Origin: an uncultured Chloroflexia bacterium
Lineage (GTDB): Bacteria; Chloroflexota; Anaerolineae; CG2-30-64-16
Reading direction: 5' to 3'
Length of the DNA: 64,000 bases
Assembly: GCA_963810095.1 (NCBI GenBank)
Contig: CAWEMM010000014.1
Coordinates: forward strand, 264,099-328,098
The notes beneath the pieces were generated by a model. The model worked only from the letters and a program-made list of their open reading frames with translations. It was not told the DNA's origin and did not search any database. Numbering within the stretch: the first letter of the stretch is position 1; each line of letters starts with the position of its first letter. Below, piece by piece: positions 28,182-64,000 of the stretch. Made by a program: the position numbers and the translations under genes.

Positions 28182-28880
28182 CTAGATATGACTGCCGCCC
28201 GCCTCTACCCAGGCGTCCGCAGTCTGAGGGTCATCTTCCAACCGCATGTGCGACATGGATGCTTCGAGCGCGACCACCCGGGCGGTCAGGTGGCGCATCA
28301 GCTCGTTGTTCGGGTCGGGCAGGCGGTCGTGGTGCAGGTCGATGCGCTCCGGCTCCGGATCGTCCCCGTTGCGGCTCTTGATCCGCCCGGGCACGCCCAC
28401 CACCACAGAATGGGCCGGCACGTCCTTCACCACCACCGAGTTCGCGCCGATGCGGCTGTGTGCGCCGACGAGGATGGGGCCGAGCACCTGCGCGCCTGCG
28501 CCAACCACGACGTGGTCCTCCAGCGTCGGGTGCCGCTTGACCTTCTCCCAGCTCACGCCGCCGAGCGTCACGTTGTGGTACAACGTCACGTCGTCGCCGA
28601 TTTCGGCCGTCTCGCCGATCACCGTGCCCATGCCGTGGTCGATGAATAAGCCCCGCCCGATCTGCGCGCCGGGATGGATTTCGATTCCGGTAAAGAAACG
28701 CGAGATGTTGCTCACCAGCCGCGCCAGCCACTTGAACCCGTTCGTCCACAGCGCGTGCGCGACCCGATGCGCCCACAGTGCGTGCAGCCCGGGGTACAGA
28801 AACAAGACCTCCCAAACCGTTCGTGCGGCCGGGTCCCGGTCAAAGACCACCTGAATATCGCGGCGAAGTGTTCCCAACAT
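28182..28880 (-). CDS. cysE: Serine O-acetyltransferase
   Basis: [26 protein letters not shown] hexapeptide repeats. Confidence 0.96.
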
Positions 28881-28904
28881 CTTCTCGCTCTCCTATGCAC
28901 GGAT

Positions 28905-28974
28905 TAACACAAGGGCACAAAGACACAAAGAAAAGCTCGTCGATAAATCTCTGTGTCTTCGTGTCTTTGTGTTA
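28905..28974. repeat. Palindromic element with 9-nt periodic arms (CACAAAGAC / GTCTTTGTG)
   Basis: Inverted arms visible; related to 31445-31532 and 13328-13404. Confidence 0.7.
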
Positions 28975-28979
28975 GCTCG

Positions 28980-29942
28980 TCACCCTTCCAGGTCCGCAAA
29001 CAGCACCGTGCTCAAGTACCGCTCGCCGTTCGAGGGCACGATGACCACGATGCGCTTGCCGGCATTTTCCGGCCGCCGTGCGATCTGCACGGCCGCGTGA
29101 ACCGCCGCGCCCGAGCTGATGCCGACCAGCAGCCCCTCTTCCCGCGGCAGCCGGCGGGCCATCGTCAGCGCCTCGTCGTTCGTCACCTTGACGATCTCGT
29201 CGATCAGCCCCGTGTCGAGCACTGCAGGCACGAACCCCGCGCCGATGCCCTGGATCTTGTGCGGGCCGGGCTGGCCGCCCGACAGGACCGCCGAGTCCGT
29301 CGGCTCGACGGCCACGATCTTGACGTCTGGCCGGCGCTCCTTGAGCACCCGGCCGACGCCCGTCAGGGTGCCGCCCGTGCCGACGCCCGAGACGAAAATG
29401 TCGACCTGCCCGCCCGTGTCCCGCCAGATCTCCTCGGCCGTCGTGCGCTCATGGACGGCCGGGTTCGCCGGGTTTTCGAACTGCTGCGGGATGAAATAGT
29501 GTTCGTCGTCCGAGGCCAATTCGTATGCCTTGCGGATCGCACCCTTCATGCCCTCGGCCGCCGGAGTCAGGATCAACTGCGCGCCGTACGCCCGCAGGAG
29601 CTTGCGGCGCTCGAGGCTGGCGCTTTCGGGCATGATCAGCACGCACTTGTAGCCCTTGGCCGCCGCGACCATGGCGAGGCCGATGCCGGTATTCCCACTC
29701 GTCGGCTCCAGGATCACCGTGTCGGGTCCCATCTTGCCGGCCGCCTCGGCCGCCTCGATCATGCTGAGGCCGATGCGGTCCTTCACGCTGCCGCCCGGGT
29801 TCTGGTACTCCAGCTTGGCCAGCACTTCCGCGCCTGCATCCCGGGTCACCCGGTGCAGCCGCACCAGCGGCGTGTTGCCGATCAGCTCCGTCACGTCGTC
29901 CGCGATCCGGGGTGAAACCTTGTCGATCGTAGTCATCCTCAT
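28980..29942 (-). CDS. cysK: Cysteine synthase A
   Basis: NPGGSVKDR (PLP Lys), [22 protein letters not shown]. Confidence 0.97.
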
Positions 29943-35847: not shown

Positions 35848-36049
35848 GCATCCTTCGACTTCGTCGGGCGAAACCATCGCCCGACTCCGCTCAGGATGCT
35901 TAAGGATCCGAATGAGGCAAAAGCATCGTTCGACTTCGTCGGGCGAAATCATCGTCCGACTTCGCTCAGGATGCTTATGAATCCGAATGAAGCAAAAGCA
36001 TCCTGAGCGGAGCACCGCGGTAGTTTGGCGGTGCGCAGTCGAAGGATGC
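35848..36049. repeat. Cluster of three REP-like units at 75-bp spacing
   Basis: GCATCCTTCGACT-[hairpin]-CGCTCAGGATGC at 35848, 35923 and inverted at 35998. Confidence 0.85.
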
Positions 36050-46990: not shown

Positions 46991-47113
46991 GCATCCTGAG
47001 CGGAGCGGAGTGAAACGTAGCGCAGTCGAAGGATGCGGAGCGGCTTTGCGCTGCGAGGGCCGCATCCTTCGACTGCGGCAGGCCAGCTGCGCTGGCGCCT
47101 CCGCTCAGGATGC
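46991..47113. repeat. REP-like doublet (CATCCTGAGCG...TCGAAGGATG family)
   Basis: Two inverted units upstream of tRNA-Pro. Confidence 0.78.
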
Positions 47114-47215: not shown

Positions 47216-47290
47216 CGGGGCGTAGCGCAGCCAGGTTAGCGCGCTTGATTTGGGTTCAAGAGGTCGGGAGTTCGAATCTCCCCGCCCCGA
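47216..47290 (+). tRNA. tRNA-Pro(TGG)
   Basis: CGGGGCG acceptor, CTTGA-TTTGGGT-TCAAG anticodon arm, GTTCGAATC T-loop; no encoded CCA. Confidence 0.95.
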
Positions 47291-49742: not shown

Positions 49743-51112
49743 GAGAGTGTTGGATAACGTGGCAGAGGAAGGGCAAAGGCACCCTGTCGCGGCGAAGGTA
49801 GCGGTTTCAGGAGTGCTGAAGGTCGTTACGGGTGCAAAAGAGGGCGCTCGGAGGTGCGTGTGAGGCTGGCCGGGCGGTCAGTAGGCGCGCCAAAGCCAAG
49901 GGGTTAGCTGGCGCGGACGGGGGCCAGACGCTGCGTGGGGCGCAAGCGTACGCCGGTCAGCAGCGTGACGATGCGCTTCAAGTTCAGCACCAGGGCCGTC
50001 AGCTGGGCTTGTAACCCATAGCGCCGCAGGCCGAGGTAGCGGCAGCGGCCAAAGCCGTGCCAGCGTTTGGCCTCGCCAAACTTGCGCTCAATCTTGTAGC
50101 GCTCGGCGTGTCCGGCGTGGTATTCCGGCGAGTCCTTGAGCTGCTGCCAGGCGTCCCGGTGTTCGTTACGCGCCGCCGTGCGGTAGTCATTCAGGGTCAG
50201 CGCCGAATGCTTGCCTTGGGCCGCAAGTTGATAATGCAGCTCGGTGTCATCGTAGGCCTTGTCGCCCGCATAGATCTCGGCCGTCACGCCCACTTCGGCA
50301 TCGTGGGCCAGCAGCTGCGGCACCTGCTTGTTGTCCGCCGCACTGCCCGGCGTGGGCGCCAGGGAGGTGATCAGGCCCGTCTCGGCGTTGACACTGACAT
50401 GGCTTTTGTAACCCAGGTACTGCACGTCCTGCATGCTGATCTTGCCATCGGGACCGGTCTTGCGGCGCTTGCCTTTCTTGACCCACTGGGCTTGCTTATC
50501 CCGCGGTGGCCGGCCCTGCGCCTGGCGTTGTCGGTCGGCGTCGTTGTCGACGTCCGCCACCGTGTGCACGCTGTCGACGACCTGAATCTGGCCCAGGCGA
50601 ATCCCGGCGGCCTGCGCCTGGCGCAGCACGCTATCGCCGATGGCCTGCAACTGCTGCCAGCCGTTGGCTTCGCGCAGCCGCCGGTTGAACTCGCTGAGCG
50701 TACTGTGATCCGGCGCCAGTTCGTCCACCGCCAGCCCGACGAACTCTTTGATCGCCAGGTTGAGGTTGGTCGCCTCCTCCACCTGCCGCTCCGAGAAGCG
50801 GTACAGATAGGCGATCACCAGCATTTTCAGGATCGTGACCGGCGGATACGGCGGCCGCCCGGCTTCCGCCAAGCCCTTGTACGCCGGCAGGAGGATCTCC
50901 GTAAAGCTGTCCCAGTCGATGACGCGGTTCAACTGCACCAGAAAATGGTCCCGGGGCACCACCCGCTCGCAAATCGGCGCACCAAAGAACGAACCTAAAC
51001 CTAACGGCTTGAAGTGCTTCTCGGCCATCATTACCCCCTGTCGGCTGCGATGACCTCATTGTAAGCACTTCCCAAAATCGCGCGAGTTTTCGGGGAGTTA
51101 TCCAACACTCTC
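49743..51112 (-). mobile_element. IS5/IS1182-like insertion sequence (1370 bp)
   Basis: Perfect 16-bp TIR GAGAGTGTTGGATAAC; 9-bp TSD GCCAAGAGC at 49734-49742 and 51113-51121. Confidence 0.95.
49904..51031 (-). CDS. DDE transposase (IS5/IS1182 type)
   Basis: GRPPY, PDHSTL, VDS, GYKSH, GDKAYD, R..IERKF. Confidence 0.95.
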   Translation of the reverse strand: MMAEKHFKPLGLGSFFGAPICERVVPRDHFLVQLNRVIDWDSFTEILLPAYKGLAEAGRPPYPPVTILKMLVIAYLYRFSERQVEEATNLNLAIKEFVGLAVDELAPDHSTLSEFNRRLREANGWQQLQAIGDSVLRQAQAAGIRLGQIQVVDSVHTVADVDNDADRQRQAQGRPPRDKQAQWVKKGKRRKTGPDGKISMQDVQYLGYKSHVSVNAETGLITSLAPTPGSAADNKQVPQLLAHDAEVGVTAEIYAGDKAYDDTELHYQLAAQGKHSALTLNDYRTAARNEHRDAWQQLKDSPEYHAGHAERYKIERKFGEAKRWHGFGRCRYLGLRRYGLQAQLTALVLNLKRIVTLLTGVRLRPTQRLAPVRAS

Positions 51113-51126
51113 GCCAAGAGCGGCAA

Positions 51127-51155
51127 TTGACAAGGTCCGGCGGTGCGGGTAGACT
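51127..51155 (+). promoter_or_regulatory. sigma70-type tRNA promoter
   Basis: TTGACA-N17-TAGACT, 10 bp before the tRNA-Gly fragment. Confidence 0.8.
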
Positions 51156-51165
51156 AGGTGCCGGT

Positions 51166-51205
51166 GCGGGTGTAGCTCAGGGGTAGAGCGTCTGCCTTCC
51201 AAGCA
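51166..51205 (+). pseudogene. 5' half of tRNA-Gly(TCC); probable prophage attachment junction
   Basis: GCGGGTGTAGCTCAGGGGTAGAGCGTCTGCCTTCCAAGCA, then loss of tRNA structure with no T-arm. Confidence 0.85.
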
Positions 51206-51317
51206 CCCTAGACAGACCGACAACCCTTGTATAACCTTTGTAGTACGACATCTAGTGTCTCCGCAACTGTTACCCCACTAGATATGGGCGTTGGGGCTAC
51301 CGAAAGGGAGCCTGCCC

Positions 51318-52220
51318 ATGTCGACTGAGCGTCTACTCTCTGACAAATTGGCCCTTGCAATCGAAACCTTCTACACGGCGAAAGAGGGTGAGCGGATCGC
51401 GGCGCGCACCCTTGAGACATACCGCCGTGCGGTCGGCATGTTCGAGACGTGGTTGCGCGAGCGGGCATAACCCAGCCGGAGCGCATCACGCCCGCCCATG
51501 TGCGGCAGTACTTCGCCGAACTGGGCAAGCGGGGCTACTCGTCCTCCAGCGTCCACGACTACGCCCGCCCGGTGAAAACGTTCGTCCGGTTCCTTCACGC
51601 CGACGATATCCTGCCTGTCGACGTCATGGCGCGGGTGAAGATGCCACGGGTCGACAAGCGCATCCTCCCCGCGTTCACCCCGGACGAAGTCCGGGCGGTC
51701 CTCAAAGCCTGCAATACCCAGCGGGATACTGCGCTGTGCCTGTTCCTGCTCGACACCGGGCTGCGTGCCTCCGAACTGTGTGTCCTCAAGATGCGCGACT
51801 ACAACCCCAAGACCGGGGCGGTCATGGTGCGGCTGGGAAAGGGGGGCAAGGATCGGGTTGTTTACGCCGGAGCCAAGAGCCCGGCGGGCGATCCTGCGCT
51901 ACATGATGACCCGTGACAATCCCGCCGACGACGCGCCGCTGTTCCCGTCCGTGCGGGGACAAGACCAGCACCTTACCGCCAGTGGGCTACTGATTGCGTT
52001 GACAAAGATCGGCAAGCGGGCGAAAGTGGAGCACTGTCATCCGCACACGTTCCGGCGCACGTTTGCGTTGTTCTCGTTGCGGTCGGGGATGGACGTCATG
52101 CGGCTGGCCGCACTCATGGGGCATTCGGAACTGGGCGTCCTGCGGCAGTATCTCGACTTCAACCTTGACGACCTTGAGGACGCGCACGCGGAGCACGGGG
52201 CGGTCGACAACATGATCTAG
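51318..52220 (+). CDS. Tyrosine integrase/recombinase (two frameshifts)
   Basis: DTGLRASEL, GKGGKDR, HPHTFRR, LMGHS..Y catalytic residues. Confidence 0.92.
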
Positions 52221-52545
52221 GCGATGCCCTCCCGATACCCTATCGGATAGGGTATCAGGAGGGTATCAATGGGTCGGCATAACCTGTCGGTATACATATA
52301 CATATACAGTATACTATCCGTTAGAGTACTTCGTACTCTAACGTCGGCTGCGCCGACCCGCCCGCCACGTCTGCGACTGCTCGCTCGCGTGAACGATCAG
52401 TCATCTCTCCCATTCGACGCATAATTTGACGTAGATCAATACTAGCTACAATCGGACTTGTACGTCACATCAGCGAAAGGAGTGACGCGCAAGCGTCCCA
52501 TCCCCGTTCCACCATGCCGAATCGCATCACCCGCACTTCGCAAGT

Positions 52546-52734
52546 GTGTTCTCTCGATTTCTGTGTCTCCCGCCCGACCAACGGGCGGAACTGGCCGCGG
52601 CATTCGAGATCCTGCTCGCAATCGCCGAACAGAATCCCGCGCCTGTCGACCACCCGGACCGTGTCGCTCAGCGTCAAGCAGGCGTCGCGATCAACCTGCC
52701 GACCCATTCCCGCCCTGAACCTCCGCAAAGCTGA
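52546..52734 (+). CDS. Small protein resembling the repressor C-terminus (possible antirepressor); start uncertain
   Basis: SRFLCLPPDQRAELAAAFEILLAIAE; converges on the repressor gene. Confidence 0.4.
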   Translation: MFSRFLCLPPDQRAELAAAFEILLAIAEQNPAPVDHPDRVAQRQAGVAINLPTHSRPEPPQS

Positions 52735-53060
52735 TCATCTGATCAAACATGCGGATCAACGCCGTCTGCCTGTCGGCAGGCAACTGAGAAAACCGCCGGA
52801 GAGTGTTCCGAATCTCCGGCGGGAGTTCGCCGTATGCCCCGTCGGCTCAAGAATCCGGCAAGTTCCGCAAGATCGTGAATCGGGACGTCAGCGCGTCCGC
52901 CAGTTGGCGGATCAGCTCGAGCGTCGGCTTGTGCCCGTGCCGGATCGCCGACAGCGTCGCAGGCGAGATGCCCACTTTCCGGGCAAACTGGTTCTGCCCC
53001 ATATTACGGTTACGCGCCTGCTCCTGAAGATAGACGAACAGCCGGCTTTCCTCTGCTCAT
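52691..53060 (-). CDS. XRE/Cro-CI HTH prophage repressor (frameshifted; not in ORF track)
   Basis: Manual translation: NMGQNQFARKVGISPATLSAIRHGHKPTLELIRQLADAL. Confidence 0.8.
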
Positions 53061-53126
53061 GTGCCCCGCTCCTTCTGAGCAGCACTGGTTGACGATTGTA
53101 CCGAAAAAATCATGCAAGTCGAGGTA

Positions 53127-53155
53127 TTGACAATGCGTTTGTTTAGGTGTATGCT
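53127..53155 (+). promoter_or_regulatory. Rightward early promoter
   Basis: TTGACA-N17-TATGCT; opposing -10 TACAAT at 53095-53100. Confidence 0.72.
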
Positions 53156-53287
53156 CTGTTTATCAGTCGTGAACGAACGGTCACGCTAATCTGATCACCC
53201 GCTGTCTCTCCGGTCGGCGGGTTTCTTTAGACCTTGTTTCGTTCGTTCATGTGACCGATCTTTCGCTATAGAAACCGAAAGGAGAGC

Positions 53288-53740
53288 GTGGACGCACTGA
53301 CTCGCCTCTTGTCCCGTGTCACCGTCACGCCGGAGGGATGCTGGCTGTTCACGGGTTCGCTCGACCGCCGGGGTTACGGGCACTTCCGCCTCAACAGGCG
53401 CTTGCGCAAGGCGCATCAAGCCGCTTACGAACTGATGATCGGGCCGATCCCGGCTGGCTGTGTCGTCTGTCATCGCTGCGATAACCCTGCCTGCATCTGC
53501 CCGCTGCACCTGTTCGCCGGGACGCAGGCGGAGAACATCGCCGACCGGGATGCCAAAGGTCGGACGGCAAGGGGCGAGCGCAACGGACGGGCAAAGCTCG
53601 ACAGGCGCAAGTCGAGCACGGTTCGGCGCTTGCACGCAGCCGGGCAGCATCGCCAACAAGACGGCGCTGGCCCGTCAACTGGGCGTCTACCCGGCGGGCA
53701 ATTGACCACATACTCAACGGCCAGAACTGGCGGGAGTGAA
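53288..53740 (+). CDS. HNH endonuclease (HNH_3 type)
   Basis: [30 protein letters not shown]. Confidence 0.88.
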
Positions 53741-53742
53741 CG

Positions 53743-54179
53743 CATGGCCGACAAGCCCCTCCAACGTGACGACATCGCCCGCTATCTGCTCCGACGGGGC
53801 GTGTCGCTCGACGAGTTCGCCAGACGAACTGCTCTATCTCCAGTGCCACGGCGTCCCGCTCGACAAGGTCGGGCTGGTCGGTCGGGCGTGGCAACTGGTC
53901 TCCGAAATGCTCGACGAACGACAGGCGCTCGATCTGGCCGAACGCTACACCCTCTTGACGTGCTGCCCGCACTGTCGAGTCAGAGCACCCGCATCACCGG
54001 CGGGCGCGAACCCGTGCATCTACTGCCCGAACTGCGGCGCCGTCCGTGAGGACACGCAAGTCACCGCAACCGGACATGGTATCGCTGGTCAGCAACCGGA
54101 GCGACCGTTCATTCACGCGACAAACGCAATATATCGCAAAACTTATCCCAAAGTCAAACAGGGAGGACGGGGCGCATGA
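53743..54179 (+). CDS. Phage protein with C-terminal zinc ribbon (frameshifted)
   Basis: CPHC...CPNCG. Confidence 0.55.
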
Positions 54180-54520
54180 CTGTCTCCGCTGATCAAGTCA
54201 AGCGCGGCCTACGCATGGACTCCGGCGGGCGAAGATCGCCGCATTCGACGCCGGAGAGGAAGAAATCGTCGCCAAGGCGGAGTACGAGACCGCCCGGATC
54301 GCCGGGATCACTGCCGGGACGATCACCGGGCGGAACGACACGGAGCGCGACGCCGCCGCCAAGACCGTCTGCGCCGACGCAGTGGGTCGCAGTATCAGAT
54401 GGCGGTCGCCGAGGCACGGGAGGCGCGGCATCATCTCGACCTGGCGCAGACCGACGTCGACGAGATGCCGGGCGCTGCTGCGGCTGGAGGAACTGGCCGG
54501 ATTCGCCGGGTCGGGAATGA
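54176..54520 (+). CDS. Hypothetical helical phage protein (frameshifted)
   Basis: RBS GGAGG; ATGA overlap with the upstream gene. Confidence 0.4.
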   Translation: MTVSADQVKRGLRMDSGGRRSPHSTPERKKSSPRRSTRPPGSPGSLPGRSPGGTTRSATPPPRPSAPTQWVAVSDGGRRGTGGAASSRPGADRRRRDAGRCCGWRNWPDSPGRE

Positions 54521-54550
54521 TCCCGCCCAGTCACAACAGGGAGGCATAAC

Positions 54551-55330
54551 ATGGGGTTTTCAGAGGGCAGTCGCCAAGCCGTTCTGGTTGCGGCTGGCGC
54601 TCGACGGACCTGCCGGGTCGGGCAAGACCTGGACGGGTCTCGAAGTCGGCGACGTTCTTCGCTGCCCAGTACGGGCAGGTGCCCGCCTACATCGACACGG
54701 AACGCGGGTCGGCGTCGAAGTACGCGGCGCGAGTTCGCTTTCGACGTGGTCGAACATGAAACCGCCGTTTCATCCGGATCGGTTCGTCAAGGGCATCGCG
54801 ATGGCGGTCGAGGCGGGCTACAAGGTGCTCGTCATCGACTCCCTGTCGCACGCCTGGAACGGCCCCGGCGGCCTGCTGGAGATCGTCGACCAGATCGCCT
54901 CCCGCATGAACGGCAACAGCTACGCCGCATGGAAGGACGCGACGCCGATTCAGACCCGGCTGATCGACGCTCTGACCGGGGCGGACTGCACATCATCGCC
55001 TGCCTGCGGGCGAAGATGGACTACACGCAGGAGAAGGACGACCGGGGCCGCACGAAGATCACGAAGGTCGGCCTGGCGCCGGTGCAGCGTGAGGGCATGG
55101 AGTACGAGTTCGACGTCGTCGGCGACATGACCGTCCTGCACAACCTGATGGTCAGCAAAGACCCGCTGCGAAGAACTGACGGACCAGATGTTCGTCAAGC
55201 CGGGCAAGGACTTCGCCCAGATTCTCTGGAACTGGACGCAGTCCGGCGTGACCCGTGAGCAGTTGAAGGCCCAGCGGAGGCGGAACGCGCGGCGAGCGTC
55301 GGCGCGGGACGAACGGGACTGCTACGGTCG
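54551..55330 (+). CDS. AAA ATPase, Sak4-like phage recombinase (frameshifted; 3' end approximate)
   Basis: GPAGSGKT, IDTERGS, VIDSLSHAW, VQREGMEYEFD. Confidence 0.8.
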
Positions 55331-56148
55331 TAGCACCGCAACAGCCGACCGCCGAACGGCAACGGGGCGGAGGCTGGCAGTGCCGAAAGCCCTTTTCCGG
55401 GTGAGTCCGATCCGGTCGGCGTCGAAGACCCTACGGGTCTCGTCCGCTTGGCCGGACTGGTCGCGACCCGCTGACGACAGTCTGTCGTCTGGGAGCACGC
55501 CCGACGCTGCCGGTCATCCGTGGCACTGGCGGACGGCTCGACGGTTCCCGCCGGGGACGCCGGACTTGCCTCCGCCGTCGCTGGACCACCGGCGAGCGAC
55601 CGATGCAGTCCGGCTGCCTCCGGTCGGGCAAGCCGCACATGCCGACCCGCCGACAACTCCGGCATTCCGGTCGAAGTGACCTACACGGAGCAGGCCGCGA
55701 CGCCGACGCCGCCTCCGGCGCAGATCCGGAACCGGACGGGTCGACGACGGTCGTCATCGAGAACCGGGGGCAGATGAGGATCACATCGCCGGAAGTTCTG
55801 GCGGAGCAGGGCATGCCGACGGATCCGCCGCCGCACGGCAGACCCGCCGGCCCGAGTCCGGCGCAGAAGAAGAAGTCCGGGCGGGGCGGCCGCCTCCGTC
55901 GCCTCCGAAGTCTACAAGAGTTCCTGGCCATGTGCGCATGCATGGTCGCCGACGTCCCGTACTACCGGAACGCGCAAGGCGGGGCGGACATGTTCCGCAT
56001 CCTCCGGGCGGTCAAGGCCGAGGAGATCGACGGGTCGACCGACAGACCATCGACAATGCAATCGCCAAAGTTGCCGCCCGTGGGCGGAAGCACGAGGCGG
56101 AGGAACGCGAAAAGGCCGCACGCAAGGCGGCGAAAGTAGAGGCATTGC

Positions 56149-56482
56149 ATGACCGTAAGGACGTCGTCGCGGACAGCCGCCGGCGTGCCCGGCAGTCTCC
56201 GAACCGTCGGGGGTGTTCAGTGACGCAGTCGTCGACGCATACGAGAACCTGTCCCGCCGGGGCATCCAGCCGATCACGCCGTTCGATCTGTGGGCGCGGA
56301 TGGAGCTAACCGGCCAGATGGAGGGCACGCTGGCCGAAATCGTCTCGTGGGACACGGCGCACAAGCCGGGTAAGACCTACGCCGGCGTGATCGAGCAGCT
56401 GATCGCCGACCGGAAGTGCCGCTACCTGCAACTCGAAAAGCAGCGCGGACAGACCGTCGTCACCGAAGAAATCCCGTTCTAG
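56149..56482 (+). CDS. Hypothetical phage protein
   Basis: ORF 56213-56482 ending EEIPF. Confidence 0.45.
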
Positions 56483-56553
56483 CTCGCCGACGGGCGGTTG
56501 CCCTGCTGCGGGCAGCGCATCCCGCCCGTCTTTCATGCCCCACGGAGGATCAG

Positions 56554-57559
56554 ATGACTGCTGGCGTGTACGAGAACAAGTGCGTTGTCGTCCGCATTCC
56601 GGCATGGCATCGGCAAGGGTATGTCGCTCCCGAACCGATCACCGCACGGGAGGGCGTGCGGCACATGGGCGGATTGCCGCTGATCGGCAAGCGCCGCCTG
56701 CTGTGGGACGACGGGACGCCGTCGCCGTGGTACGGGCTGGGGCGGCTGGGCGCTGACGGCAAGATGGAGGAAGGGTTCGCCGCCGTTCCGCCGACTACCG
56801 CATGATCACGTTGGACGAGTTCGTCGACTGCTGGGAGCAGGGGACCGGGAACGCGCTCATCGACACGATGGGCGTGCTCAACGGCGGGAAAATCTTCTTC
56901 ATCACCTGCCCGCTGCCGGACACCGACATTCTGGGGCGACGAGATCAAGCGCAACCTGTCGGTTGCCCACTTCAACGACGGCGTAACCGCCGACTCCTGC
57001 CTGATCACGGGACGCGCTGGGTCTGCCAGAACACGCTGCTTGGATCTTTGGCGCGGGAGGCTGACGCGGTGTTCCGGGTGGCGCACGACACGGACATCAT
57101 GGGCAACCTGATCGGCTGGATGCAGAACGCCTACGGCACGGCGCTCGACAAGGCTGCGGCGGTCAAGGAGGCGCTGGAGATCATGGCCCGCCGCCCTCTG
57201 ACGCAGACTGAGGCAATCGAGACGGTCAAGATGACCGTCCCGCTGCCCCGCGAGCCCCGCCCGACCGGGTCGCCGAACGACGACGTCCGCCTGCGGGAGA
57301 ACTGGGGACGGGCGTGCGACAAGGTCGTCAAGGAGCGGGCGACGATCCTCAACCTGTACGAAGGGGCGGGTCTGGGCATGGAGACGCCCGCCGCGAATCA
57401 CACGGCGTTCGGTCTGCTACAACGCGTATCGGGGAGGCTTACGAGTACGTCATCCCCTCCACGAACGACAAGATACAGGCCCGCTCCTACCTGTTCGGCG
57501 AACGCCGGGTCATCGTGCAGCGCGGTTTCGATCATCTGCTGCGCCTCTGCCGGAACTAA
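56554..57559 (+). CDS. DUF932-family protein (frameshifted)
   Basis: PAWH..G, TMGVLNGG.IFF, R.VCQNTL, T.FGL. Confidence 0.75.
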
Positions 57560-57567
57560 GGGGCGCA

Positions 57568-57790
57568 TGATCGGGACTGAGCAGATGCCGCACTGCCCCG
57601 ACTGTCAGGGGCCGATGGCGCTGCGCCGCCCCATCCGCAAGGATTCGCCGCCGGAGTACTACTGCCCGGAATGTGACGAGCAGACAAGACCCGGCTGCGA
57701 ATCCGCCGGAACTGGGAGTCGCGAACGCCCGGCTCATGGCGGACATGGCCGGAGCATACTGCAACGACGACGTCTGGGAGCCTGCGCTAT
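57568..57790 (+). CDS. Small zinc-ribbon phage protein (3' end approximate)
   Basis: CPDC...YYCPEC. Confidence 0.45.
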
Positions 57791-58816
57791 GGGGAGCGTA
57801 ACCGCAGACGATCTCAAGAAGCTCGACCGTCCGGCATGGACGGCGCTGGTCGAGCAAGTCAAGGCGGATCACCCGATTGACAGCGTCATCGAGCATACCG
57901 GGGCGGGAGTACCGCCTGGACCGTGAGGGCATCGAACTGCGGGGCACGGATCACGACTCACTGGTCGTGACGCCGCGAAAGGGTCTGTACCAGTGGTCGT
58001 CGCGCAACGAAGCGGGCGACGTCATCACCTGGATGCGGCAACCGCTACAACGTCGGCATGTTCGACGCCGTCGCTGATGCTGGTAACGACGGGATTCGCT
58101 CCCGGTCGGGACAGCGAACACCGCGGTCCGGTCGTGGAGGACAAGCCGCCGCCGCCACTACTACCGCAGGACTTGCATCTCCGCTATCACCGGGCGCTGG
58201 ACGCCGCCGCCCGGCAGTGGTGGTACGCGCAAGGGATCACGGATCAGGGGATCGCCCGGTTCTGGCTGGGCGTCTGCGACGATCACCCCGAGTACGGACG
58301 GGCGTTCACGATCCCGGTCATCGAGAACGGCAGCGCTCGTCAACCTCCGGCTGCGGCTGGAGCACCCGACAGACGGCGCGAAGGACAAGTATCGCCCGTG
58401 GGCGAAGGGGTTGCGGGACGCAGCTCTACAACGCCGACATCCTGACCCCGGAACTGGGCGCAGTGGTCGTCACGGCGGGCGAGAAAAAGGTCATGGTGCT
58501 CTGGGAGCACGGCATCCCGGCGGTGACCCCGACGGGCGGCTGCGGCAACTGGAAAGACGAGTGGACGACCCGCCTCAGTTCTGCAGCAAGTGTATACATC
58601 GCATTCGACCCGCCCGAACAGGCGGCAGCGTGGAAGCTGGCGGAGCAGATCGGCGAACGGGCGCTAGTGGCCCAGTGCCCCGACAAACCGGACGACTACA
58701 TCCTCCAGCATGGCCGGGACGCATTCCGCGAGCGTCTAAGGAGGCGCTCCTTTCGCCGATCACGACTGGTGGAAGAAGCAACTAGGCGGTCGCAATCTGT
58801 GGGGACGACGATCTAG
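57789..58816 (+). CDS. DNA primase-like protein (zinc-finger-like N-terminus + TOPRIM; frameshifted)
   Basis: HDSLVV..K..Y.W.S...GDVI, TIPV, V.AGEKK, YIAFD, KPDDY. Confidence 0.7.
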
Positions 58817-58822
58817 ACGACG

Positions 58823-59240
58823 AATGACGACTTGATCGCCCGACTGCTGGCAGATGGCACGCTCCGGGCGGACTTGACGACTGGCGAATGTCAAGAACGG
58901 GTCGCAGGGTGGGCTGGAACGGCACGCGTAACGGGTACATGCACGTCTGGGTGAACAACCCAGACGGGACGCAAACGCACTTGAGAGTGCATCGGATCGT
59001 GTGGATCGCGGCGCACGGAGTTCCTCCGCCTGGATACGTTGTCTGTCATCTCGACAACGACAAGCACAATAACCGCATCGAAAACCTGCTTGCAGCGCCT
59101 CCCAGCGGTCAACGTCAGGCAAGAGGTTCGAGGACGGCTTGATCCGAAAGGGTGAAGATAGCCCTTACGCAAAGCTGAAGGGTGACACGGTGCTGAAGCT
59201 ACTCGCTGACTTTGCAGCGGGGATGATGTCCGAACTGGGG
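58823..59240 (+). CDS. Second HNH endonuclease (frameshifted; ends approximate)
   Basis: VHRIVW, VCHLDNDKHNNRIENL. Confidence 0.8.
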
Positions 59241-59327
59241 CAAGGTACCGTGGCAGCGAGACGGGTCACCGTGGTCGTCTCTGGAGCACCGAAGCGTGTC
59301 ACGGTCCTCCACCGCCGGAGCGTGAGT

Positions 59328-60193
59328 ATGGCCCAGACATGCGATACATACAAGCATGTGGCGGAGGAATGTGGTTCCAGACTTGAACCGACGCAAAGCT
59401 ACTCTGGTTCTACCTGCTCACGAACCCGTCGACGAAGCAGGCGGGCATCTACCGGCTCTGCCGCCGCGAACGATGGCGAACGAGACCGGGCTGCCGCGGA
59501 CGGGTCCGGCGCATCGCTCGCCCGGTTCGAGCAGGACGGCAAGGTCATGTACGCCGACGGCGTGATCTGGGTCAGCAAGATGCGGGCGTACCAGACCGGG
59601 GAGGGCATCGGGCGCAAGATGTCGGCGAGCAGATCATGGGCATCGAGAACGATCTGAGGGAGATACCCGACGGGCGGGTCAAGCGGGCGTATCTGAGACA
59701 CTATGGATACCCTGTCCCGGATGACCCGTTACCCTCAGATGACGTAGGGAGACCCTACTGACAGCGTATCCGGAGGGTGTCGGGACGGTCCCGACACCCT
59801 CCGCGCAGCCCGACCCGCCGCCTCCCGCAGACGGCAACGCGGCGCGATGGATGCGAAGGAGTGCGTCACGCTCGATCACGTCAAGCAGTACCTCCGTCAG
59901 GGCTGAAGGGGCCGACGGAGCGCGGGTTCAACCGGATCGCCGCCTGCGTCGCGCTGTACAACGCCCGGTTCGGCGACGACTATCCCGGCCGACTTCGGGC
60001 GGCTCGGCGAGATCGGCAAGCTGCTCTCCGGCGGGGATCTGGCGCTGGCGGAGCTGATCTGGAACTGCGCCGATCCCGGCGGGCGACCCGCACGACTATC
60101 TGAAACGCACGGTCGCGGCAAGCGCCGAACCGCACCCGGTCGGGGCAAGGGGCACAGGAACCGCCCCGGCGCGTATCGTCGATCCGCAGATGA
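59328..60193 (+). CDS. Phage replication initiator-like protein (frameshifted)
   Basis: LLWFYLLTNP....AGIY, MA.ETGL HTH; lies between primase and DnaB. Confidence 0.6.
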
Positions 60194-60210
60194 GGCGATA
60201 AGGAGGCAAC

Positions 60211-61550
60211 GTGCCGAGCCGTCAGTCCAACGGGACGCACGCAGGTTGAGACGGAACGGGCGATCATCGCCGTCCTGCTCAACGACACTCACGCGAGTCG
60301 TGCCCGTCATGGGCGCACTCGACGGGCCGGACGTGTTCACCGATCCGGTCTGCCGGCCGGCGTATGGGACGATCCTTGCGCGTCTCAAAGAGGACGTCGC
60401 CCCGAACGTTTACACGGTCTCGACCCGCTCGGGGCTCACGCTCGATGCGCTCAACGACATCGCCCGCCGGTGGAATACCAAAGTCAGTCAGGAAGTGCTG
60501 TACCTCTGCGACGACGTGGTCCGGGCCTACCGCGAGCGGGAACTCGCCGATGCACTCGACGAGGCGCGGACGCTGCTTGGCGCGGGCACGGACGACCTGA
60601 GGGGTACGCGACGCACGTCATGTCGATGATCGCCGCCGCCTCCGACCGCAAGGGGCAACGGGACTCGTCGATCACGGCGGTCAACGAACGACTCGACGCC
60701 GAAATCGCCGAGGCTGCAAACGGCATGGCGGGCTACTCGACCGGGCTGGAGTGGCTGGACATCAAGACGGGCGGGCTGCAGAAGTCGCACGTCTGGGTGA
60801 TCGGCGCGCCATACAAAGGGCAGAAAGACGTCGACCGCCCGGAACATGATCCTCCCGGCGCTGGCCGGGGCGCAGCGGTCGACTGGTTCGCCCTGGAGGG
60901 CACGCAGACAGGCGTGTCGGCGGCGCTCCAGTCGATGCTGGCGACGAAGCTGCTGTACGCGTGGCAGGGCCACCGCGAAGACAGGATCCTGTCTGAGACC
61001 TACCTGCTGCGGGGGTATGCCGAACCACGATGCAGAAACAGGCGCTGACCGAGCGCACGGCGGACGATCGAGGGGTACAACCTCCGCATCTACGACTCGA
61101 AGGACGGGATCACGTCGCCGGAACGGATGGCGACGCTGGTCAAGCGGGATCAGATGCTCTACGGGATGCAGATTTTCGTCGTCGACTTCATGCAGCGGCT
61201 GGGCACGGGCAAGCTGTACGACCGCATGGAGGCGGCGACGCAGACGCTCCAGACGCTGATACAGGAGGGCGGGCTCACCGGGCATACTGCTCTCGCAACT
61301 GAACGAGTCGGCGATCTGGGCGACGACGGGACGGGACGCCGACGAGCAACTACTCGCCCGGCGGCAAGGGCGGCGGCGATCTGCCCGCAGCGGCAGACTT
61401 CTTGATCACGACATCGTACAAACGGACGGACGACCCGGAGACGGCTGGGCGTGCGAGTTGAAGCTGGCCCGTCACGCGCAGCCGGGCAAGTGCATGTACG
61501 AGATCAACCCGCCGTCCGGGTTGATCCTGCGTGAACTGGGGGAGGAATGA
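60211..61550 (+). CDS. DnaB-like replicative helicase (frameshifted)
   Basis: ETERAIIAVLL, GYSTGLEWLD..TGGL, IGAPYKG.K, FALE, VVDFMQ, LSQLN. Confidence 0.78.
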
Positions 61551-61594
61551 ACGCACGGGGACATCTTCCCCTACGTCGACGCCCGGAGGGGCAA

Positions 61595-62163
61595 GTGATC
61601 GAGACAAGCGATTATCGGCTGGACGCTGACGTTCTGGCGTCCCTTGCTGGGAACGCAGATGGTCGGCGAACTGGCGGGACCGACCGACGAACGCTGACGA
61701 CGGCGACTATCGCCGAACTCGGGAAGCACACGACCTACTTCTTCCGCAACGCGAAGGGCGAACCGATCCTCTACGACTATCACCTGCATGGGGTTTCTCA
61801 AGGAGGCGGCGAGGCGCTCAACGGCAGGGTCACGGGCGGGGTCAAGAACCTCCGCAGAAGGTCGAGAATCTGGTTTCGTGTCCCCGGTCGAGATTCCGCT
61901 GATCCTCCCGGCCGGGGGAGGAACCCGGCCTGTTCGAGCGGCCCTGCCGCAGGCGGACGCCGTTCGGGCAGCGGGTGTTCATCGCTTGCAGCGAGACGAT
62001 GCCCGCCGAGACCCGGCTGACCGCCGGGATCAGCGTGTATCCCGGCGAGATCAATCAGCGGGTGCTGGAGGACTTGCTCGACTGGGGCTTCCATCACGGC
62101 ATGGGGCAGTGGCGCACGGGCGGCTGGGGCCGATTCCGCTACACCCTGAGCCGGAACGAGTAA
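61595..62163 (+). CDS. Stand-alone Cas7/RAMP-like protein (~190 aa, frameshifted)
   Basis: Reconstructed across frames: YRLTLTFWRPLLGT; GEPILYDY..MGFLKEAA; ERPLR; SETMPAET; LLDWG...GMGQWRTGGWGRF (G-rich loop). Confidence 0.72.
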
Positions 62164-62280
62164 CGCGACGGCGCAGCTACGCTAGGCCGGAGCGATCCGC
62201 TGCGCACGCGAGCAACGGCGCAGCCAACCCAAGCGACCGACGCAAAGGCACAGCAACCGGAGGGCGGGATCGACCGCCCC
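62164..62280 (+). ncRNA. Putative small RNA: pentamer-periodic tract plus 3' hairpin
   Basis: NGC-NN periodicity, three GCRAMGGCRCAGC copies, hairpin GGGCGG/CCGCCC at 62262-62279. Confidence 0.55.
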
Positions 62281-62301
62281 ACAAGTAAGGGGAGAAAAGA
62301 G

Positions 62302-62538
62302 ATGCGGTATTGCGAGTATTGCAGCGCGGCGGGAGGCGACGGAACACATCACCGTTATCGTCGACGCATTCGGGCCGGACGGCATCAGAGCGGTTGTATG
62401 CGCAGTTCTGGCTGTGCCCGGACTGTGTCAAGGCGCTGGGGCAGTTGTTCGTCGAGGACGACGGACTCAAGGCGCGGGTTGCCGCCGCGCTGTTGCGGCG
62501 CAGCCGCGGGAATGCCAGAAGTAACCATCGGCTATTGA
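62302..62538 (+). CDS. Small zinc-binding phage protein (frameshifted)
   Basis: CEYC...LCPDC; purine-rich RBS. Confidence 0.5.
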   Translation: MRYCEYCSAAGGDGTHHRYRRRIRAGRHQSGCMRSSGCARTVSRRWGSCSSRTTDSRRGLPPRCCGAAAGMPEVTIGY

Positions 62539-62634
62539 CGACGACTCGCCGGGTCGTCCGGCGGGTCGTTGTCGCGCTCATCTACCCGGCGCATTGCTAC
62601 CCCGTGCGCTGGAGTCCACTTCTGAGGTAGGTCT

Positions 62635-63100
62635 ATGAAGTTGTTTGCACTTGCGCTGGCGGTCGTCGGCGTTCTTCGTCACGCCCCAGCCCGTGACCGG
62701 AGAGGCGACGTACTACAACCCCGACATCATGGAGGGCGTGTACGCCTATAGGTTGCGGACAGGCGAAGTGCAACCGTGCCCGGAGTGCGTGGGCATGGTG
62801 GCGCTGCTCCGGGCGGAAGACATCGGTCGCAAGGTCTGGCTGGAGCATCCCGACGGGTCGATCATCGGACCGCTGCTGGTCGTCGACTGCGCGGCGGAAA
62901 GACGACGTCCCGCATCTGGTCAGGCGGAACTGGGTCGTCGACGTTAGCTGGGAAATCTCCCGGCACTGGAAGATGCGCGGGCCGATAGACGGCGTGACCG
63001 TCCACTTCCGCCGGCCCAGGCAACCGGAGCGGATCGAGCCGGGTCGCCCGCACGTCAGCCCGCCCCGGCAGGCGATGGCAGGTGCATGTGGGACGTCTGC
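62635..63100 (+). CDS. Secreted double-psi beta-barrel (RlpA/3D-like) protein (frameshifted; 3' end approximate)
   Basis: Signal-like N-terminus, GEATYY, IGRKVWL, LVVDC, VDVSW. Confidence 0.55.
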
Positions 63101-63162
63101 CCATGCAGGCGGATGCTCCCGTGCAACGCAGCATCTTTGTACTAACAAGAGGACGGCAAAAC

Positions 63163-63471
63163 ATGGCACACAATGCAATCAAGATGACCGTGCCGCAGGT
63201 CGAGGCGGCGCTCGACAGCGAACCAGGGGCGGCTGGCGCTCCTGTTCACGTCGGCGAATTGCCCGAACTGCCCGGCAGCGGCGGCGGCACTGGACCGGGC
63301 GGAAAAGCGGGGCGCAGTTGCTAAGGCGCTGCGGGTCGACGCCGAACAGAGTCCCGAACTCGCCGACTACGCCGGGGTCATGGCGACGCCGACCCTCCAG
63401 GTGTTCGACGGGGCGATGTTGCGGGCGGTCGTCACGGGCAACCGGGTCGCACGGGCGCTCGATCAGCTCTA
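63163..63471 (+). CDS. Hypothetical phage protein (frameshifted)
   Basis: GAGG RBS, MAHNAIK. Confidence 0.4.
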
Positions 63472-63481
63472 GGGAGGCGAG

Positions 63482-64000
63482 ATGAAGGCGACGTTTGTGA
63501 CGCTGGCGCGCACAGCCGAGCGGGTCTGGAGAGCGTCTGGCAGTTCCGGCGGGAGACGAAGGACATGTATCCGATACCGGATCGCCTCTGGTCGGCGCGG
63601 TTCGCAGTGACGGAGGGCGGCGAGACGCTCGACGCGGTCATCCGGGCGGAACCGCAGTTCAAGCGCAACAACGCAGCGGGAAGTCAGCCGGGAGCGGGAA
63701 CTCGCCGACACCGCGTTCATGCTGGCGACGACCATCGGCGAGACGATCCCGATGTCCCTGTTCGACAAGGCGACGGTCGCGCTGGGCGTGCTGGGCTATC
63801 CGTCGGACATCGACGTCGTTCCGCTGCTCGTCGGGCAGGCGCTCTGGGCGGTCAAGTCGGGCCGGTCGCAACTGGCAGCTCAAGGCGGCAGTCGCGCTGC
63901 TCGTCGTCATCGACATCATGGACGATCCGGTCGGATCGGTCGACGAGACACTTGCACGCCTCAAGGCAAAGTGGGGCGGAGGCGTCACAGGCTGGCGCAC
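63482..64000 (+). CDS. MazG-like nucleotide pyrophosphohydrolase (partial, frameshifted)
   Basis: TEGGETLD ... ERELAD (ExxE...ELAD pattern). Confidence 0.5.

Follow-up and report, generated by a model that had tools for sequence, protein, structure and literature searches.

A probable VIPR system with a short Y-N-N-N-G repeat array in a prophage of an uncultured Chloroflexia bacterium

The recently described systems named VIPR, for Viral Interference Programmable Repeat, combine a vipr gene with a guide RNA (vrRNA) made of five-base repeats (bioRxiv 10.64898/2026.04.26.720920). That preprint describes a set of 670 Vipr proteins, types I-VII and six kinds of accessory vap gene. The type II system of Escherichia phage SUSP1, also the subject of two companion preprints (10.64898/2026.04.26.720927, 10.64898/2026.10.15.759431), comprises Vipr, vap1 and four vrRNAs; its unit, Y-N-N-G-G, carries two variable bases, a code in which two bases are read and one is skipped has been demonstrated for it, and its role is the silencing of competing mobile elements (10.64898/2026.04.26.720920). 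Beside YNNGG, the Methods list the alternative vrRNA repeats NNNGG, YNNNG and NNNNG, in four or more units, and the legend of Fig. S18 refers to 'staggered' arrays, whose vrRNAs overlap by 1 nt; for the Y-N-N-N-G type, the main text gives no reading rule (10.64898/2026.04.26.720920). Here we analyse a locus of this known kind, a gene followed by a five-base-repeat tract, in a stretch of 64,000 nucleotides from an uncultured Chloroflexia bacterium (GenBank assembly GCA_963810095.1, contig CAWEMM010000014.1, positions 264,099 to 328,098, forward strand). This stretch, hereafter the window, has a G+C content of ~65%, and its 64 kb end a 328-kb contig that belongs to a genome of 6.1 Mb (16 contigs, 88.5% complete). 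With a probability of roughly 0.8, we consider the locus to be a prophage VIPR system in which a vipr gene is immediately followed by a single short vrRNA gene, and to which a small zinc-ribbon gene probably belongs as an accessory (Table 1).

The tie to VIPR begins with the protein. An earlier note on this DNA, made from the sequence alone, had stitched a protein of ~190 aa from three open reading frames (ORFs). The three pieces are present, the residues quoted agree with the window translations, and the product is borne out by the frame path, which we traced by tblastn of two intact homologues (P0002 and P0001) against the window: its pieces are spread over three frames with 7 frame changes, and none of the matched pieces contains an in-frame stop. 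The C-terminal 86-aa piece finds four near relatives at 76-97% identity to the piece, three of them intact at 187-188 aa and the fourth a 166-aa form with a start further in. Pfam and PHROGs assign no family to the broken pieces or to P0002, and NCBIfam and PADLOC none to P0002; likewise, no member of the family that was scanned is named by any of the four collections. The family itself is large: when 1.84 billion cluster representatives (50% identity clusters) were searched with a profile of the four close proteins, 1286 matched at E<=1e-3, and 792 of these also at E<=1e-10, mostly with lengths of ~190-230 aa. Two of the matches, P0009 (458 aa) and P0020 (432 aa), are of double length and align with the profile in two stretches, and may thus be tandem-fused Vipr proteins.

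An AlphaFold2 model of P0002 (alignment with 77 relatives; pLDDT, the predicted local distance difference test, 91.4; pTM, the predicted template modelling score, 0.85) retrieves type VII Cas7 and type III-A Csm3 from among the solved structures (Foldseek, E 4e-9 to 1e-6), so that the RAMP fold predicted in the earlier note is found, at the level of a model, by structure search. The modelled fold has the RRM core, the long beta-hairpin 'thumb' and the C-terminal glycine loop of these Cas proteins. By sequence profile, P0002 has no Pfam, NCBIfam or PADLOC match that would place it in the Cas7 family, and what matches type VII Cas7 is the glycine-loop region only. The relationship to Vipr, by contrast, extends over the whole length. 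When a 77-member alignment of our family is compared by hhalign with one of 31 members from the SUSP1 Vipr family, the two profiles align end to end (95.5%, E 1.5e-8, 186 columns, ~15% identity over those columns); as controls, an 11-member Csm3 profile drawn from genomes of the same phylum reaches 12% over 18 columns with our family and 5% with the SUSP1 Vipr family. By this measure, our family and Vipr resemble each other much more than either of them resembles Csm3, a placement that rests on profile comparison rather than on a tree with the preprint's own set. Consistently, when 199 ORFs from the first 50 kb of phage phiSUSP1 are searched with the family profile, the best match is a 195-aa ORF at 28474-29061 (minus strand; E 4.4e-4). 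The VIPR parallel drawn in the earlier note thus holds on both counts: the systems are in print, and the families are homologous.

Is a gene of this family regularly accompanied by a repeat tract? We collected loci with a 10-member alignment (the four closest proteins yielded no related locus among viral contigs or genome contigs) and examined loci from IMG/VR (25), from phage records (4) and from metagenome contigs (3). We set aside five of these rows, L019 and L020 because their intervals are those of L018, L035 and L036 because theirs are those of L034, and L013 because it nearly equals L012; 2 of the 27 distinct loci left have too little DNA past the stop codon, which leaves 25 testable. 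Directly past the stop codon, 23 of the 25 have a lag-5 signal above the 95th percentile set by 281 control blocks that were taken from other loci, and the two misses, L008 and L037, have their tract 104-170 nt upstream instead. The check that the earlier note had set for its proposal, a periodic tract beside the gene in homologues, thereby came out in its favour. Phase decoding of 23 tracts leads to Y-N-N-N-G units in which position 1 is C or T in 78%, positions 2-4 vary and position 5 is G in 92%, the last being a figure that the decoding model favours, and to one extra G after every 4-9 units. As a positive control, the scan recovers the Y-N-N-G-G arrays of SUSP1 on the gene strand, one upstream and three downstream, in agreement with the preprint.

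These tracts have some further regularities. In the distant loci L022 (3097-3332), L040 (2873-3605), L009 (3088-3445) and L033 (3106-3609), CAAAG or CAACG very frequently forms the unit that immediately precedes the extra G, and the same is seen in the window and in L012; this unit may mark a conserved end of each guide or a signal for its processing. Within one locus the blocks have a regular length, 4 units in L040 and mostly 8 in L022. In L018, strong pentamer arrays lie ~1.0-1.6 kb downstream of vipr and the signal adjoining the gene is weak; another gene probably stands between vipr and array.

The tract of the window begins, as had been claimed, at the base after the stop codon. Its unit, which the earlier note wrote as NGC-NN, is C-N-N-N-G in another register; it is not a new unit, being the published alternative repeat Y-N-N-N-G. 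Following a short lead-in, ~17 tandem units are arranged in three blocks beside vipr, and each block is closed by an extra G, which fits vrRNAs that overlap by 1 nt as in the 'staggered' arrays of the preprint's legend. Related metagenome contigs differ from the window by single bases at 62183, at 62204, after 62211 and after 62236; with these differences the two long blocks would be 46 and 31 nt, in regular register, and not 47 and 30 nt. At lag 5 the tract has an identity of 0.41, where 2000 mononucleotide shuffles give 0.30 (z 2.7, p ~0.005, uncorrected for 15 lags). Among the 60-nt stretches of the window, the one at 62170 stands near the 99.9th percentile for lag 5 and takes rank 6 by contrast with other lags. 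On an 80-nt contrast score the tract has 0.177, a value attained by 1.3% of the 375 blocks of the window and by 1.4% of the 281 control blocks. The rhythm is thus real but not compelling by itself, and becomes convincing only through the homologue loci. The window's strongest lag-5 peak, at 46994-47053, was considered as a vrRNA and rejected, as it belongs to a palindromic repeat element. A search of Rfam at 61900-62500 (E<=1) found no family, and over the whole window only a tRNA.

The layout of the tract can be read most closely from L012 and L013, whose proteins show 76-78% identity to the close-homologue alignment and whose gene order is that of the window: a DnaB-like gene, vipr, the tract (blocks of 4, 9, 7 and 2 units), a tail motif with a hairpin, and a 72-aa CxxC...CxxC protein. 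Compared with L012, the window retains 79% identity in the vipr coding sequence and 76% in the tail but only 60% in the repeat part, which is thus the most diverged piece and lies directly beside a conserved tail. Among these three aligned sequences, the tract may therefore have a variable repeat part that ends in a structured 3' tail kept between relatives, which would be an architecture in common with SUSP1. In the window, L012 and L013, all 18 of 18 hairpin cells are paired, with one compensatory change from G-C to C-G, and in related contigs of runs X1 and X2 another pair has changed on both sides (62263 G>A, 62278 C>T); this covariation is suggestive only.

How does the locus compare with the described VIPR systems as a whole? 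With the alternative-repeat systems it has in common a solo minimal RAMP gene on a provirus, a Y-N-N-N-G tract directly beside the gene and on its strand, blocks closed by one extra base, and no cas genes or CRISPR array among those looked for. It differs from them in that its array is very short, as compared with hundreds of nucleotides in the phage relatives examined, and in that the array ends in a G+C hairpin common only to the nearest relatives. Relative to SUSP1, whose vrRNAs likewise stand beside the gene on its strand, the unit has three variable positions instead of two, and the accessory gene encodes a zinc-ribbon protein of ~72 aa, whereas a 146-aa ORF lies next to the SUSP1 vipr gene.

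This zinc-ribbon gene, itself frameshifted in the window, lies directly past the tract in the window and in L012, L013, L016, L017 and L021, and is the only conserved neighbour found, antisense shadow ORFs aside. The earlier note had proposed a two-component effector. A vipr gene with an adjoining tract is indeed what the locus contains, but with the zinc-ribbon gene standing behind the tract here and in five related loci, the system is probably not strictly two-component. Pfam, NCBIfam and PADLOC assign no family to the protein, and its model (pLDDT 81.5) has no Foldseek match in the PDB at E<=0.001, the best (E 0.43, to ribosomal zinc-ribbon proteins) being taken as no match. The gene is probably an accessory gene, and a candidate for one of the vap kind. 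In the subclade of L028, L029 and L031, small conserved ORFs of 59-64 aa lie just upstream of vipr and others of 65-73 aa just past the array, where they occupy the place of the zinc-ribbon gene.

The surroundings are those of a prophage early region, as the earlier note had placed the gene. Phage genes lie upstream, and the DnaB-like gene directly ahead of vipr is syntenic with the ORF upstream of vipr in L012, which matches Pfam DnaB_C with E 8.7e-4 and 19.2 bits, under the curated cut-off of 27. A thioredoxin gene is found downstream of the vipr locus. The vipr family is present as a single copy in the source genome and was not found in the 60 genomes of relatives that were searched; together with the integrase and replication genes upstream, this gene content suggests a mobile element. 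Cas1 has no match across the whole genome at its 88.5% completeness, Tandem Repeats Finder detects no CRISPR-like array in the window, and no Cas family appears among 134 stop-to-stop frames of >=70 aa at 50000-64000, the part of the window that was scanned against Pfam (1-50000 was not). The statement that the window lacks cas genes and an array stands to that extent; cas5, cas8 and cas10, which it also named, were not searched individually. Farther upstream, a palindromic element at 46994-47110, just ahead of the tRNA gene, has arms that recur in a 75-nt unit present in 2.1 copies at 35848-36004, and the two look like members of a family of repetitive extragenic palindromes or miniature inverted-repeat transposable elements (REP/MITE-like).

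Table 1. Features of the VIPR locus and of its prophage surroundings; positions are those of the window.
Feature	Position	Strand	Remarks
tRNA	47216-47290		upstream of prophage integrase
IS-type (insertion sequence) DDE transposase	50000-51055	minus	DUF772 + DDE_Tnp_1; between tRNA and prophage integrase
Phage integrase	51416..52217	+	split over two frames; Pfam Phage_integrase E 4e-12 and 9e-12; prophage left part
Genes between integrase and vipr, in order			two HNH endonucleases, phrog_1366/AAA_24, DUF932, primase-like, weak DnaD-like match
DnaB-like replicative helicase gene	60194..61550	+	frameshifted; directly upstream of vipr
vipr gene (minimal Cas7-like RAMP, ~188 aa)	61595..62163	+	GTG start 61595, TAA stop 62161-62163; 7 single-base frame changes
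Putative vrRNA repeat tract, C/Y-N-N-N-G pentamers	62164..62261	+ (gene strand)	lag-5 statistics, phase decoding; L012 layout; units at 62172-62260
Repeat block 1	62172-62218	+	9 units + G; short lead-in before
Repeat block 2	62219-62248	+	6 units + G
Repeat block 3	62249-62260	+	2 units + G
Conserved motif before hairpin	62243-62261	+	kept in nearest relatives
3' tail hairpin	62262..62279	+	6-bp G+C stem, 6-nt loop; RNAfold
Ribosome-binding site	62287-62294	+	ahead of zinc-ribbon gene
Small zinc-ribbon-like gene	62302..62538 (end approximate)	+	frameshifted; ATG 62302; ~71-72 aa in intact relatives; CxxC...CxxC + conserved His

How might such a locus act? Since no promoter or terminator consensus was seen in a scan of 61400-62700, the vrRNA would probably be transcribed by read-through from vipr. 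By analogy with SUSP1, we envision a scenario whereby Vipr protomers polymerise along the repeat RNA, each of them holding the constant bases at the G-Y junction of Y-N-N-N-G and exposing the variable ones, and whereby the resulting filament might bind the double-stranded DNA of a competing phage, prophage or satellite by a gapped base-pairing code and thus silence transcription of its target. For the role of an anti-CRISPR decoy, which the earlier note had also entertained, we see no support.

Several results weigh against the assignment to VIPR, or against a working system of that kind. Nothing in the analysis shows an RNA, and none of the sequencing runs recorded as RNA contains the stretch of the locus. 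Under a Y-N-N-N-G hidden Markov model applied to the whole genome in 100-nt windows, the tract ranks no higher than the top 0.5% and is absent from the 25 best windows; the 7 best, which we inspected in case they were additional arrays or solo vrRNAs, resemble G+C-rich coding DNA. Two loci at a greater distance, L016 and L017, have no such hairpin tail, and the covariation count of the hairpin, which comes from 3 sequences and is reached by 155 of 500 shuffles, carries no statistical weight. A search for targets in both strands of the 6.1-Mb genome itself, with 11 position and skip models in two orientations, each set against 6 unit-order shuffles, found none under any of the 22 gapped models and no score above the shuffles, although the probable indel errors of the tract weaken this test. 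Two further points, the density of frame breaks in vipr and the profile-to-sequence matches to Cas proteins, each favour a distinct alternative and are taken up with it below.

It is possible, if rather unlikely, that the Y-N-N-N-G class reads DNA by a rule unlike the SUSP1 code, as three variable bases per protomer could entail a different target step, and that the zinc-ribbon protein is an accessory of a kind not yet described. If the rule were indeed different, the short, hairpin-capped array of three blocks would be a compact natural test case for the Y-N-N-N-G code.

Somewhat less probable still is that the locus is VIPR but dead, its frameshifts and those of its neighbours being real and the prophage a decaying remnant that no longer makes Vipr. 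The vipr gene carries its 7 breaks within 570 bp, as compared with one in the ~3.9 kb of rpoB on the same contig, so that the assembly is not uniformly poor and the copy could really be dead; an IS-type transposase beside the integrase would suit a remnant, too. Moreover, the final 8 kb of the contig contain 27 switches in the phase of G+C at third codon positions, as opposed to 4-18 in the other 40 bins of 8 kb, which, along with the single rpoB break, indicates that the damage is local to the contig end and the prophage. Frame breaks cluster at 55900-64000. That the damage peak falls exactly on the contig end, however, speaks against decay. Each of the 7 lesions shifts the frame by a single base, and over its last 86 residues the protein retains 97% identity to an intact homologue, which is hard to square with decay at 7 indels per 570 bp. 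Related short-read contigs have single bases missing or added at the breaks (e.g., 61626 and 61709); these contigs, from 4 sequencing runs, are ~88-92% identical to the window, no run with this very strain having been found. Because of the uniform type of lesion, the near identity of the C-terminal piece and the single-base differences at the breaks, we regard consensus errors at a poorly resolved contig end as clearly more likely than real decay.

That the protein is instead a stray Cas7 (type III or VII) from a degraded CRISPR-Cas locus, and the tract intergenic DNA with a chance rhythm, is highly improbable: the best solved-structure matches are type VII Cas7 and type III Csm3, the profile-to-sequence matches to type VII Cas7 (E 9e-6) and Csm4 (E 2e-4) beat that to the deposited SUSP1 Vipr chain (E 0.52), all three being confined to the C-terminal glycine-loop region, and the tract of the window alone ranks only in the top 0.5-1.4%, but the profile comparison favours the Vipr family over Csm3 along the entire protein, the setting is a prophage with no partner Cas proteins found, the genome lacks a Cas1 match and the window a CRISPR-like array, and the rhythm recurs after the stop codon in nearly all testable homologue loci.

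For the source genome itself, a prophage VIPR system is an ordinary finding. To the VIPR systems, the locus adds an example from a high-G+C prophage, and it ties a large family, with its 1286 cluster representatives, to Y-N-N-N-G tracts. A practical corollary concerns annotation, in that lone 'hypothetical' phage genes of 190 aa followed by a five-base rhythm should be called vipr and vrRNA. Conceivably, a small locus with a single array and close relatives such as this one could help to derive the rule by which Y-N-N-N-G repeats are read.
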